The notes below the pieces were generated by a model. That model had not been told where the DNA came from and searched no databases. It was given only the letters and a program-made list of their open reading frames with translations. A DNA stretch of 64,000 nucleotides from Octopus vulgaris (lineage: Eukaryota): positions 85,560,001 to 85,624,000 of the forward strand of contig OX597814.1 in the NCBI GenBank assembly GCA_951406725.2. The letters run 5' to 3'. Both the position numbers and the translations under genes were made by a program. Of this stretch, positions 21,175 through 50,146 are shown piece by piece. Positions within the stretch are counted from its first letter, which is position 1. Every line of letters starts with the position of its first letter.

Positions 21175-21247
<73 letters not shown>

Positions 21248-21337
21248 ATAAAACGGTAAGATAACAAAAGAAAGAAAGAGACCTCAATATTATGTAAATA
21301 GAGGAAATTTATCTATACAATATGTTACATTACTCGG

Positions 21338-21411
21338 TAGTCAAGATAAAACTCTGAGTTTCAGATGCCGAAGTGGAAATCCACAACACCATCTCTTCGG
21401 TTATCTGGCTA
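21338..21411 (-). ncRNA. hammerhead-like motif in the PLE 3' region (mirror of 24006-24079)
   Basis: Reverse complement of the 24006-24079 motif. Confidence 0.6.
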
Positions 21412-21600
21412 TTTGAAAACGTTATGAAAAAATACCGTTAAAAATGAAGGGAAATTACTCTGTTATAACTCTGCTTTGCCTGTGTACTTATACATCGCTC
21501 GCATTTTTCGTCATAAAAATTATATAAAAATACATAAAAATATATAAAAATATATAAAAATATATAAAATCTTCTTGGGACATAACACAGAAAGCATGTT

Positions 21601-22640
21601 CTATCCGTTTTCTTTAGGGGACCAAAAACGTAACAGAAATTTAGTCACATGTGGGCATGATCCGAAAAGTTCTGTCCTTGTATTTAGACATGTGGTAGGG
21701 TCTAAGCTGCTTTTCCAGATAAGCCATCTCTCCATGTCGCATAAACCGCACCTTCCGCTGCCGTTAGTATAGGGCTTACATCTGGCCAAAATCTTCCATT
21801 GTATGTTATAATCGACACCTTTATCTCTTAAAGACCAAATATGATTGGATAATTGTGTCGCTTTTCTTTTGTTCCAGTGCCTAAAGCTCAAAGTGTGGTT
21901 ATTGAACCTGGCCTTGAAATTACCCTCTGTCAGGCCCACGTATTTCTTCGTCAAAACGGTGTCTTTAGTGGTTATAGAGTTTACGGTAGCTTCATATATG
22001 ATGGTCTTGGACATGCAAGCTCCATTTAGCGGGCACAATTCTTTATTCCTGCATGAACAGCTGTTTTCTTCTTGTGTTTTATGTATGTTATGATTGATTA
22101 TGTTTTTAAAATTGGTAGTTGAACTAAAACTAATTTTTAAATTGTGTCTATTGAAGAGTTTCCTATAAGCATGGTTAACTGGAAAATGTCTATCTATCAG
22201 TGCTAGGAAATATTTACCTATATTGAAGGCCACCTCGGGTGAGTAAGGGGGCGTAAACCAGATGACCTTCCTATTTCTATTATTCCTTTTCCTTATTGTT
22301 GGGCTGGTGATAGGTGTATATTTTATTTTTTCGCTAAAACCACTATCTTTTAAAGCTTTATTATAAACTGGGGCAACGCTATTGAAGATGTCCTCATTAG
22401 ATGAGAGGCTAGAAATCCTCTTACTAATATTTTTAACTAAATTTTTGAATACTATAGGGGGATGGCATGAACCTACATTAATATAACTTAGTCTATCATT
22501 GGGCTTCCTATAAGGCTTATAAATATTATTATTAAGATCTAAGGAAACGTCTAAGAAATTGACAACCGTCAGGTTAGTGTCTATAGTTATACTAAGTCCG
22601 AAGTGTTTCATTAACTGGATAATATCCTTCCTAAAACGAT
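21601..22640 (-). CDS. PLE ORF, truncated: RT C-terminus/thumb, CxCx5Cx5C linker, GIY-YIG endonuclease
   Basis: NFLDVSLDL, YRKPND, HPP, RKVIWFTPPYS, CSCRNKELCPLNGAC, IIYEATV...YVGLTEGNFKARFNNH, LSNHIWSL, CGLC..E, LN.R.E...C.H. Confidence 0.9.
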
Positions 22641-23816
22641 GATGGGGCAGGCATCTGTGATCTAATTGGACTCTTTCTCCTAGATACCTTCAGTAAGACA
22701 TTCCCTAACGTACATTTCGCCATCTACAAAGATGATGCCCTCGCCTTAACAGCTAATACAAATGGACCAGCACAAGATCGTTTTAGGAAGGATATTATCC
22801 AGTTAATGAAACACTTCGGACTTAGTATAACTATAGACACTAACCTGACGGTTGTCAATTTCTTAGACGTTTCCTTAGATCTTAATAATAATATTTATAA
22901 GCCTTATAGGAAGCCCAATGATAGACTAAGTTATATTAATGTAGGTTCATGCCATCCCCCTATAGTATTCAAAAATTTAGTTAAAAATATTAGTAAGAGG
23001 ATTTCTAGCCTCTCATCTAATGAGGACATCTTCAATAGCGTTGCCCCAGTTTATAATAAAGCTTTAAAAGATAGTGGTTTTAGCGAAAAAATAAAATATA
23101 CACCTATCACCAGCCCAACAATAAGGAAAAGGAATAATAGAAATAGGAAGGTCATCTGGTTTACGCCCCCTTACTCACCCGAGGTGGCCTTCAATATAGG
23201 TAAATATTTCCTAGCACTGATAGATAGACATTTTCCAGTTAACCATGCTTATAGGAAACTCTTCAATAGACACAATTTAAAAATTAGTTTTAATTCAACT
23301 ACCAATTTTAAAAACATAATCAATCATAACATACAAAAAACACAAGAAGAAAACAGCTGTTCATGCAGGAATAAAGAATTGTGCCCGCTAAATGGAGCTT
23401 GCATGTCCAAGACCATCATATATGAAGCTACCGTAAACTCTATAACCACTAAAGACACCGTTTTGACGAAGAAATACGTGGGCCTGACAGAGGGTAATTT
23501 CAAGGCCAGGTTCAATAACCACACTTTGAGCTTTAGGCACTGGAACAAAAGAAAAGCGACACAATTATCCAATCATATTTGGTCTTTAAGAGATAAAGGT
23601 GTCGATTATAACATACAATGGAAGATTTTGGCCAGATGTAAGCCCTATACTAACGGCAGCGGAAGGTGCGGTTTATGCGACATGGAGAGATGGCTTATCT
23701 GGAAAAGCAGCTTAGACCCTACCACATGTCTAAATACAAGGACAAAACTTTTCGGATCATGCCCACATGTGACTAAATTTCTGTTACGTTTTTGGTCCCC
23801 TAAAGAAAACGGATAG
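22641..23816 (+). CDS. PLE ORF, 5'-truncated: RT with YKDD motif, thumb, Cys linker, GIY-YIG endonuclease
   Basis: The frame is open 55 codons upstream of the Met at 22806: DGAGICDLIGLFLLDTFSKTFPNVHFAIYKDDALAL. No internal stops. RT motifs upstream of motif 4 are missing. Confidence 0.92.
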   Translation, partial: DGAGICDLIGLFLLDTFSKTFPNVHFAIYKDDALALTANTNGPAQDRFRKDIIQLMKHFGLSITIDTNLTVVNFLDVSLDLNNNIYKPYRKPNDRLSYINVGSCHPPIVFKNLVKNISKRISSLSSNEDIFNSVAPVYNKALKDSGFSEKIKYTPITSPTIRKRNNRNRKVIWFTPPYSPEVAFNIGKYFLALIDRHFPVNHAYRKLFNRHNLKISFNSTTNFKNIINHNIQKTQEENSCSCRNKELCPLNGACMSKTIIYEATVNSITTKDTVLTKKYVGLTEGNFKARFNNHTLSFRHWNKRKATQLSNHIWSLRDKGVDYNIQWKILARCKPYTNGSGRCGLCDMERWLIWKSSLDPTTCLNTRTKLFGSCPHVTKFLLRFWSPKENG

Positions 23817-24005
23817 AACATGCTTTCTGTGTTATGTCCCAAGAAGATTTTATATATTTTTATATATTTTTATATATTTTTATGTATTTTTATATAATTT
23901 TTATGACGAAAAATGCGAGCGATGTATAAGTACGCAGGCAAAGCAGAGTTATAACAGAGTAATTTCCCTTCATTTTTAACGGTATTTTTTCATAACGTTT
24001 TCAAA

Positions 24006-24079
24006 TAGCCAGATAACCGAAGAGATGGTGTTGTGGATTTCCACTTCGGCATCTGAAACTCAGAGTTTTATCTTGACTA
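24006..24079 (+). ncRNA. type I hammerhead-like motif in the PLE 3' region (variant core)
   Basis: agataa-CCGAAGA-gatg...gtggatttccac...catc-t-GAAAC-tcaga-GTT-ttatct. Has U4->C, an extra U before G12, and a GUU site. Confidence 0.6.
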
Positions 24080-24102
24080 CCGAGTAATGTAACATATTGT
24101 AT

Positions 24103-24143
<41 letters not shown>

Positions 24144-24196
24144 TACATATATATATATGTGTATATATATATATATATATAAATGTGTGTGTGTGT

Positions 24197-25030
24197 GCAG
24201 GCGCGTGGCTTAGTGGTTAGGGTGTCAGCACCATGATCGTAAGATTGTGGTTTCGATTCCTGGAGCGGACGACGCGCTGTGTTCTTGAGCAAAACACTTC
24301 ATTTCACGTTGCTCCAGTCCACTCAGTTGGCAAAAATGAGTAAGGTTTTAAAAGGGCGCATTTATATATATTTGTATTAACATTTATATATCTGTTACAA
24401 TCTCGCGCACACACACACCCACAATCATACATGTACACGATTGTCAACTAATTTGGTCTCCGTCTCCTAAGTTTCTGTCGTAAAACATTGATGAGCGCGA
24501 GATTGTAACAGAGGACACCTTCCAAACATGCCGTGCAGTGTGACCGAATTCGAACTCTCGTTATTGTAAAGCAAGCCTATACACAGCCATGTCCATGGTT
24601 GTCCTCTTAGATTCTTTAATATCATATACAGGGGTCTGTCTCCCCAAAAATTTTATTTAACTATAAATTGGGTTTATAAAGGGAACATTTATTTTACATA
24701 CATAGTTACATGCATGCAAACATACATACAACCACAACAATTGGCACTCTGTCGGCTACGATGACGAGTGTTCCAGTTGACCCGATCAACAGAAATTAAC
24801 GTGCAAATGGCTGTATACTCCACAAACATGTGTACCCTTAACGTAGTTCTCAGGGAGAATCCACAACACAGAATGTGACAAGGCTGACCCTTTGAAATGC
24901 AGGTACTACTCACTTTTGCCAGCCGGGTGAACTGCAGCAATGTGAAATAAAGTGCTTTGGTCAAAGTCACAACGCCCCGCCGGGAATCGAACTCACGGCC
25001 TTACGATTGGGAGCCTTAATCACTAAGCTT
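24197..25030. mobile_element. SINE cluster: family C (+) 24197-24345, decayed family A (-) about 24400-24590, family C (-) 24740-25030
   Basis: tRNA-like head gcgcgtggcttagtggttagggtg...ggtttcgattcct, and homology to the other copies. Confidence 0.8.
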
Positions 25031-48349: not shown

Positions 48350-49125
48350 AGGTCTGATGAATAATTATTCGGACTGTTGCCATAGTAAGGAAGCTTGGGA
48401 ATGCAGAGTAAAACAACAGTTCTCGGAAGGAAGGTGCGTAGCTTGTGATCGTAGCATTGACCATGACAGAGAAAGTTGCTATAGTGATACCTGCTCAGAA
48501 GCCTACGCAAAGTTGCAGAAAGTGTATGGAGACAATGCATGAGCCGCACACAAGTGTACGACTGGTTCAGACGTTTCCAAGATGGCCGAAAAAAAGTCGA
48601 TATTGACGAACGTTCTAGGAGATACACAGCCAGCAAAATTGAGAAAAACATCGCAGATGTGCGTGCAGTTGTGTGAAGAAAGCGTCGAATTACCATCCGT
48701 GAGTTATCAGACAATGTGCAGATTAGTTACGATTCAGTTCAGTCCATTATCATTGAAGTTTTCGGTATGAGACGCGTGTTTGCTAAGTTTGTGCCAAAAC
48801 GGCTTTCAGCTGACCAAAAAGACACCCGGGTTTCAGTTGCACAAGATCTCCTTGATTGTCTCGAGAACGATGAAAACTTTTTGAAAACTTTGCGTAGGCC
48901 TCTGAGCAGGTATCGCCAAACTTTTGGCAAAATTTGATGCAAATTCTGTGCTCAGCTTCCTCTGTCTTGGTCAATGCGACGATCACACGCTACACACGTT
49001 CCTTCCAAGCACTGCTGTAAATAACGGAACTGAGCTAGAACGTCAAAACCTCGTGCGCATACATAGCAGAGTCCAAATGTCAGTCTGTGCCAAGCGGCAA
49101 GCGGCTTCACTTGCCGTGCTTTAAA
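48346..49125 (+). mobile_element. mariner derivative with its 5' end duplicated in inverted orientation (long-TIR, MITE-like)
   Basis: Plus strand DTCSEAYAKLQKVYGDN..SRTQVYDWFRRFQDG...GMRRVFAKFVPKRLSADQK. 48886-49014 is an inverted homolog of 48417-48514 reading EHRICIKFCQKFGDTCSEAYAK. Confidence 0.85.
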
Positions 49126-50142
49126 AATAAAAATACATCTAAAATGTTAGTTTGGTTATATTTATATACATTAAAAATATATTTTAATGCATTTATGTCA
49201 AGTAACTCTAAAATTAAAAATTCTATATACCAGTGTAAAATTATTACTCATAATAAAGTACAATTTTACATTGGAAGCACGTCGTTACAGTTATCTAAAA
49301 GAATTTCTATCCATTACTCAACATTTAGGGATAGGAATAAACGTAACAGTACAGGGCTCAGTAAATTAATTTGGGATCTAAAATACCACAATGAACAATT
49401 TAATTTAGAATGGTTGATTCTCTCAATCTCGATATCTTATGACAAAGGCAAGGAATTGTGTCTTCTCTGTAATTCTGAACTATTTTTCATTATTTTTTCT
49501 AAAAATCCCCTAGTAAACACGGGTATAGAGCGTGCATACCGATGTAAACATTGGCAAAACACACCTTTAGTTCATATAAGTAATCTCTATCATTATATAT
49601 AATGTAAACATTAATTTTCTTTTTATATTTAATATTCACTAAAAAAATACATGTTTTCCTAGTTTAAAGGTTTTATTTAATATACATATACTCATATACT
49701 TCTCATTAATTTAACTTTTCCTTATTTTATCGCCACTCTTTCTATAGGCTACTTCTGACGTTATATCATATAACGTTTTTTCAAACAAAATTAATAGCGT
49801 TCAGTAAATCACTATACATATCCATCATTTTCTGTTAAAATGTCTTATTGACGAGTTTCATTTCTTCACTTCCCTGAAGAGATTACATTGTTTTACATCA
49901 TTTATTCCTTTGGAATAATACCAGTGATATCTTCGAAACATGTGTCGGAAGTAAAAGTATTTGAATTACACCTGCGTTAAACTCTATTTATTTATATATC
50001 ATACAAAAAAAATTCACTTAAACCCGAAATTTCTACCTTTAAAAATAAGGAGATATACCTCTTTACTTGTGTGATTTTTGCTACCCTTGTAACAGTTTAT
50101 ATATTTTTTCCGTATTAATTGTTAAGGGAAAATACACACATC

Positions 50143-50146
<4 letters not shown>
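49125..50146 (+). mobile_element. second Naiad-like PLE 3' fragment (GIY-YIG, 3' UTR with hammerhead) ending in (TA)n
   Basis: SIYQCKI...FYIGST...KRISIHYSTF...STGLSKLIWDLK...EW.IL...CLLCNSE...LVN...RCKH (stop at 49602) parallels the 22641-23816 endonuclease. Confidence 0.88.
49868..49952 (+). ncRNA. type I hammerhead ribozyme
   Basis: acttcc-CTGAAGA-gat...atcttc-GAAAC-atgt-GTC-ggaagt. Homolog of 17591-17673. Confidence 0.78.

Follow-up and report, generated by a model that had tools for sequence, protein, structure and literature searches.

Paired long and short ends in the foldback insertions of a young Hydra-clade Penelope-like element family of Octopus vulgaris

Insertions of a young and abundant Penelope-like element (PLE) family in the Octopus vulgaris genome are, as a rule, two-armed foldbacks set within (TA)n, in which two head-to-head copies direct their 3' ends outwards and one arm ends with a tail (long end, L) that the other arm lacks (short end, S). 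Inverted arms and a one-sided tail were already known in PLEs, and what this family adds is the near-exclusive pairing of one L with one S end, together with a class of loci in which each arm holds sequence absent from its partner. The window, by which we mean the whole stretch of 64,000 nucleotides that was analysed, contains one such foldback at 21244-24107, which to judge from its sequence and that of its relatives was probably formed by overlapping twin priming on one RNA, the two resulting cDNAs then templating each other.

The foldback in the window and the family it belongs to

The two inverted arms of the insert, at 21310-22640 and 22777-24107, are 1331 bp long each (1334 bp in a repeat search that counts the TA overlap) and differ at four positions (21483, 21672, 22081 and 22124), and the 136 bp between them (22641-22776) are element sequence corresponding to positions 1057-1192 of the 2590-bp family unit, present in the right arm only. 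On the forward strand this spacer shares its reading frame with the right arm (ORF 22635-23816) and carries the YKDD motif of the reverse transcriptase (RT) at 22725-22736. The left, tail-bearing arm (21244-22640, reverse strand) runs from unit position 2590 to 1193 and is devoid of the RT active site; it extends 66 bp beyond the equivalent end of the right arm, to 21244, and these 66 bp (21244-21309, reverse strand, unit 2525-2590), located between two inferred RT start sites, constitute the tail missing from the right arm. The tail-less arm (22639-24107, forward strand, unit 1055 to 2524) is 5'-truncated, retains an open frame that covers residues 318-708 of the family's 708-aa protein and terminates at TATAGATA (24107). 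Both outer ends merge into (TA)n, annotated as repeats at 21175-21245 and 24100-24181, and the analysis of joints places the head-to-head junction at a 2-nt microhomology, AT, at 22639-22640. Across the 2.8-Gb genome, this exact junction is found a single time. The foldback is a real structure, beyond chance, and the arms, the in-frame YKDD spacer, the one-sided tail and the (TA)n ends all measured as the first-pass annotation had described them. The early end of the right arm, there read as a stop, is instead a second fixed start site and not a truncation; the exact pattern of the S end occurs 1060 times at TA repeats, next to 1364 occurrences of the tail-bearing end. Beyond the right-hand (TA)n, and adjoining it, lies a tRNA-like region recognised by eye (24200-24330), presumably a tRNA-like SINE, in which ARAGORN found no tRNA.

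On its sequence motifs the element belongs to the Hydra clade of PLEs, as a new family, and not to the Naiads to which it had initially been ascribed, because it combines a C-terminal GIY-YIG endonuclease with RWK, DKT, CxCX5C, CxxC and CxH motifs and has no CCHH; this call comes from the motifs and from a comparison by eye with the printed alignment of PMC8557442. In the 708-residue protein the RT precedes the endonuclease (YKDD at residue 346, GIY at residue 576), RWK is found at residue 37, DKT in place of DKG at residue 114, the CxCX5C linker at residue 557 (and in 119 of 120 homologues), and, around the conserved E and N, CxxC at residue 660 and CxH at residue 691. The stretch from GIY to YIG is free of cysteines, CCHH and the CX2-5CxxC finger are absent, and the sole DKG string, at residue 635, lies inside the endonuclease and not at the N-terminal motif position. 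Within the right arm of the window locus, a motif search places the linker, which is diagnostic of the Hydra clade, at 23358-23384, and the endonuclease occupies 23415-23816 (stop codon 23814-23816), both on the forward strand. The truncated frame of this arm gave one weak Pfam match, to GIY-YIG (E 0.046), and a Pfam search of 15 full-length family proteins gave no match.

The Hydra clade, as characterised in the available text of PMC8557442, comprises elements with a single ORF, under 3 kb, with a C-terminal GIY-YIG, RWK, DKT, CxCX5C, CxxC and CxH and no CCHH, and the present family shows the same layout and size (single ORF, 2590 bp, C-terminal GIY-YIG) as well as insertion into (TA)n. Naiads, according to the same partial source, share with it the (TA)n preference and the tandem and inverted insertions, but have an N-terminal endonuclease with CCHH, measure 3.4-4.4 kb and are reported without a canonical hammerhead; an affiliation with them was rejected on the lack of an N-terminal endonuclease, of CCHH and of CX2-5CxxC, and on the 2590-bp unit. 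Neptune, Nematis and Penelope-Poseidon were also rejected, CCHH in the endonuclease and an N-terminal DKG being both missing here. Of the families described in that paper (Craig et al. 2021, PMC8557442), Hydra-1_Obim comes closest, with identity at 113 of 166 positions in two RT/thumb blocks, counted by hand on the printed alignment. The two families have in common the Hydra motif set, a unit under 3 kb, the (TA)n target and a 3' hammerhead-like motif, and differ in the tandem pLTRs, which are present in the family studied here and listed as lacking in Hydra-1_Obim, and in the hammerhead core, which here reads CCGAAGA. In addition, the RT motif reads YKDD, as against YRDD in the Hydra rows of the printed alignment, and the tail has 66 bp in contrast to the 30-40 bp described in the same paper.

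A DNA search with the element returned 1702 candidates, of which 40 were scored, and these all lie near 100% identity. Tandem copies define the 2590-bp unit with its single 708-aa ORF, for which a real copy (L033:5913-8502) serves as reference, and the best database homologue of the protein is 52% identical. The family is young, as proposed at first pass, because arms and loci are nearly identical: the divergence between loci is about 0.4%, and only 61 of 47,484 sites distinguish the paired arms of young loci. The genome holds over 1000 young insertions and intact 708-aa ORFs, and the window locus is an ordinary copy of this young, abundant Hydra-clade family, with a known architecture. Two very long insertions, of 13.8 kb (L065+L040; G000:C1, 57.209-57.223 Mb) and 15.4 kb (L059+L066; G000:C3, 37.22-37.24 Mb), carry several tandem units per arm, and these units differ at family-wide SNPs.

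A type-I hammerhead-like motif with Hydra-type layout is predicted at unit 2428-2490, corresponding in the window to 24011-24073 on the forward strand and, as its left copy, to 21344-21406 on the reverse strand. By eye, its stems I-III fit the Hydra layout and the hammerhead table printed in the available part of PMC8557442; the fold has a z of -1.4, and an Rfam search gave microsatellite noise and no hammerhead match. The core reads CCGAAGA instead of CTGANGA in all 100 listed of 3975 pattern matches, so that in all of these the conserved U at position 4 of the core is replaced by C, and the predicted ribozyme may be weak or dead in a family that is actively spreading.

Pairing of the long and short ends

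Within the first 193 Mb of contig C1, 115 insertions are marked by the two end patterns, and a hand-merged census finds 74 of them two-armed, 28 with an L arm only and 13 with an S arm only, the one-armed share (41/115) being about a third. The two-armed foldback is the norm of the family, and the structure is not the unusual one that the first-pass annotation took it to be; it had in fact been described for PLEs, including Penelope-13_HM of the Hydra clade, which the available part of PMC8557442 lists with a 5'-truncated inverted copy.

From coordinate lists alone, outward-facing ends form 51 L/S pairs, no L/L and no S/S pair. Among 171 loci, 111 two-armed insertions have both ends at (TA)n, and these are 110 L/S, one L/L and no S/S, a tally in which a small number of genuine L/S loci appear as single arms because the script had split them; loci chosen regardless of their ends gave 40 L/S, one L/L and no S/S. 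The sole L/L insertion (L043:1284-8554; G000:C24, about 19.245-19.253 Mb) has 2.66 kb mirrored, including about 2.1 kb of flank, and reflects either an assembly error or a later repair event at the palindrome. The L/S rule is also obeyed by a sister subfamily that is older (identity about 90%), and by a second Hydra family, whose tail measures about 145 bp and whose two-armed loci, 9 among 30, are all L/S, in a search that needed an L arm and took 1.5-kb flanks only, so that S/S could not show.

This second family is itself represented in the window by a divergent, 5'-truncated Hydra-type element at 49230-50146 on the forward strand, which ends in (TA)n, encodes an endonuclease 35% identical to that of the first family and has a canonical CTGAAGA hammerhead core near 49870-49950; the family yielded 4297 search candidates. 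Adjoining the 5' end of this element is a degenerate transposase remnant seen by eye (48350-49100), which we take to be mariner-like.

An inverted 5'-truncated copy and a one-sided tail are given for PLE insertions in general in the available parts of PMC8557442 (Fig. 2 legend) and PMC3846280, and the insertions analysed here agree with those accounts in the head-to-head arms, partial tandems, one-sided tail and microhomology joints. The difference is that in those passages such structures are 'often' or 'optional' and are explained by self-priming or endonuclease resolution, whereas here exclusivity has been counted. In a search with most subscription literature outside its scope, we have found no published account of an exclusive L/S pairing, of the argument from arms that are not subsets of each other or, in PLEs, of overlapping twin priming, and the available passages of PMC4209133, PMC13282606 and 10.64898/2026.07.22.740005 are silent on a pairing rule.

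Source, stops and joints of the two arms

The L/S insertions that were classed (88) comprise 72 simple and 16 complex ones, the latter being set aside. A haplotype test at 34 family-polymorphic sites in 74 arm pairs evidenced differences between arms in 9 of 1015 comparisons, versus 19% upon shuffling, with 0 of 2000 shuffles as low, and in the 58 youngest pairs the arms differed by 0.6% versus 8% in shuffled pairs. On these polymorphisms the arms share one source, and a common source is all that the haplotypes speak to; the evidence is entirely genomic, and a shared haplotype also fits two RNAs of the same source or conversion between the arms.

The positions at which the arms stop point further. 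Whenever an S arm stops at unit 2400-2470, its L partner stops there as well (16/16, 3.8 expected), and among the remaining 54 pairs there are 8 whose two stops lie no more than 35 bp apart (1.5 expected, an excess that hotspots may inflate), arm lengths being otherwise uncorrelated (Spearman -0.08, 54 pairs). The L arms with a stop inside the tail number 13, and in 9 of them the stop falls within 13 bp beside the S start (p 0.003), in a hand-curated list and with an interval picked after the data had been seen, three of the nine being single arms and TA microhomology offering a possible explanation; for arms joined to an S arm the figure is 6 of 8 (p 0.008). One RNA is favoured as template because of the shared stops at 2400-2470, the near-equal stops and the stalling of L beside the S start. 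That two RNAs of the same source were held by an asymmetric dimer, one subunit starting at the tail end and the other internally, we regard as unlikely: such an arrangement would explain the L/S rule, the independent arm lengths and the shared haplotypes without any displacement, and it fits the discordant complex loci L033 and L047, in which the arms differ at family SNPs, but it predicts neither the joint nor the near-equal stops nor the L stalls, and it gives no simple reason why the subunits never choose the same site. Like these two loci, the longest one (locus A), where a 10-bp repeat sets the second unit of one arm apart from that of the other, speaks against a single RNA.

The shared stop, just 5' of the hammerhead-like motif, is likely to be the RNA 5' end, that is, the transcript start. 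Hammerhead cleavage was rejected as the origin of this end, as the predicted cut, at unit 2484, is situated downstream of the stop (unit 2404-2460), and therefore the templates would be uncleaved or religated; a weak cluster of stops, a small group, is found at unit 2485-2500. The interval 2404-2460, which corresponds to about 23987-24043 of the window on the forward strand, is a stop hotspot for both arms and gives rise to many miniature foldbacks of 200-280 bp with paired hammerhead-like motifs.

The relative reach of the arms bears on whether one was copied from the other. In the 72 simple insertions, L reaches farther 5' in 26, S in 29, and the remaining 17 are equal to within 15 bp; in 25 of the 72, S reaches farther without an upstream copy of the tail, so that each arm has private sequence and neither is contained in its partner. 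The window locus is in this class, its tail being on the left only and its spacer on the right only. As folding back can yield nothing that the template itself lacks, plain foldback is excluded for these 25 insertions, and from such sequences both arms are read as primary cDNAs. Foldback or self-priming of one cDNA (available part of PMC3846280), with the endonuclease trimming the hairpin to a one-sided tail (available part of PMC8557442), is thus very improbable and, barring additional template switches onto antisense RNA, is excluded as a general route, with the insertions that hold arm-private sequence and those that consist of an S arm only (13/115) standing against it; a subset of loci may still derive from it, given the near-symmetric joints (17/72), the perfect palindrome at the joint of one locus (L054) and the 26 cases of S inside L, and shared haplotypes would be expected from it as well.

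The first-pass annotation had proposed that each (TA)n strand primed its own cDNA, which the L/S ends and the neither-subset arms make likely, and had left three routes for the template. Foldback is excluded at the window locus, where neither arm is a subset; a single rolling circle is not supported at locus A and L033, where tandem units differ at family-wide SNPs, though it may apply elsewhere; and two RNAs are a poorer fit than one.

Classification of the family copies by arm overlap and junction microhomology, as that annotation had advised, evidences overlapping arms in 67 of the 72 simple cases and non-overlapping ones in 5, so that the overlapping outward-facing arms on which its reading depended are indeed seen in other copies. 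The joints could be anchored in 63 of the 72, of which 20 have inserted bases and 43 do not, and 24 of the 43 clean joints have a microhomology of at least 2 nt, versus 18% at random (p 2e-8); no (TA)n was found in the anchored simple joints. Separate insertions into one (TA)n are highly improbable as the origin of the arms, and so is a later exchange between copies by recombination or gene conversion: they would give L/L and S/S pairs and mismatched haplotypes, the joints are free of (TA)n and have short microhomology, and 86 of 117 private variants are found in one arm only, which indicates that homogenisation is incomplete. Secondary events do occur, as seen in the mirrored flank of L043 and in a junction shared by L035 and L053. 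The latter two loci (L035:5480-5540 and L053:5450-5510) are unlinked and have unrelated flanks, and their identical foldback junction is found nowhere else; it arose either from a hairpin that moved as a unit, from conversion between loci or from a hotspot.

An assembly or chimeric-read artefact at the window locus is hardly credible. Long palindromes are hard to assemble, and none of the contigs of seven public runs (X8, X5, X1, X11, X7, X17 and X18) that cover the element bridges the junction (they probably stem from other individuals and are uninformative), but the flanks are unmirrored, the arms have four mismatches, unequal ends and a spacer in one arm only, and more than 100 loci, as well as a second family, follow the L/S rule. 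At the window locus the empty site and the target-site duplication are unreadable within (TA)n.

Overlapping twin priming as the probable mechanism, and its significance

Overlapping twin priming, the reading we prefer for the window foldback, would proceed as follows. The GIY-YIG domains, probably as a dimer, would nick both (TA)n strands, and the two 3'-OH ends would prime on one and the same RNA, the first where the tail ends and the second 66 nt upstream, the ATA sites pairing briefly with the TA end. Both start sites read ATA^AAT, and some S ends have T in place of the G of TATAGATA, as expected if a TA primer pairs there. The tail-primed RT would trail the other RT and displace its cDNA, and a stall behind it would result in non-overlapping, L1-like arms. 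Both antisense cDNAs would stop together at the RNA 5' end, or separately; their 3' ends would then anneal via 1-4 nt, each templating the second strand of the other, and the product would have head-to-head arms, 3' ends facing outwards and the tail on one side. To our knowledge, PLEs lack RNase H. Displacement and mutual templating are steps that we infer, and so is the dimer, which is proposed by analogy with the Poseidon element PAc (PMC11167929). Since 41 of 115 insertions are one-armed, either the element can also insert without twin priming or the loss of an arm is frequent.

In L1 twin priming, both target strands prime on one RNA and microhomology-joined cDNAs give an inversion, the internal site being variable and the pieces non-overlapping. 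The family under study resembles it in the two-strand priming, the microhomology joints and the inversion, and differs from it in its fixed second site and its overlapping arms (67/72, with 5/72 non-overlapping). A parallel in the ends is offered by Poseidon PAc in vitro (Frangieh et al. 2024, PMC11167929), for which both target strands are cleaved and extended, the tail is delimited by a pair of adjacent internal RT starts, a dimer is predicted and hammerhead cleavage is unneeded. PAc is thus alike in the cleavage and extension of both strands and in the two starts that bound the tail; it is of another clade, and its starts are not homologous to the target, whereas both starts of the window family end in ATA. 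In that study no strand difference in start site was observed, and pairing within a molecule, inverted arms and the second strand are unaddressed (PMC11167929).

Synthesis of the second strand and the formation of tandem and inverted copies in PLEs are named as open in PMC11167929 and in the available text of PMC8557442. The present family offers a counted rule, one long plus one short end, and a class of loci incompatible with foldback, and it makes this mechanistic question testable, with over 1000 young insertions and intact 708-aa ORFs as a practical substrate. It also means that the genome carries many near-perfect kilobase palindromes. More broadly, and with a little less than an even chance of being right, we suggest that overlapping twin priming may be the standard integration route of endonuclease-bearing PLEs, in which a dimer would copy one RNA twice from fixed staggered starts, the tail would correspond to the spacing of the two RTs, and the cDNAs would prime each other with no separate second-strand step. 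If this is true, a single process would account for the arms being inverted and head-to-head and for the tail being on one side, and the telomerase-related RT of these elements would be a strand-displacing double copier.
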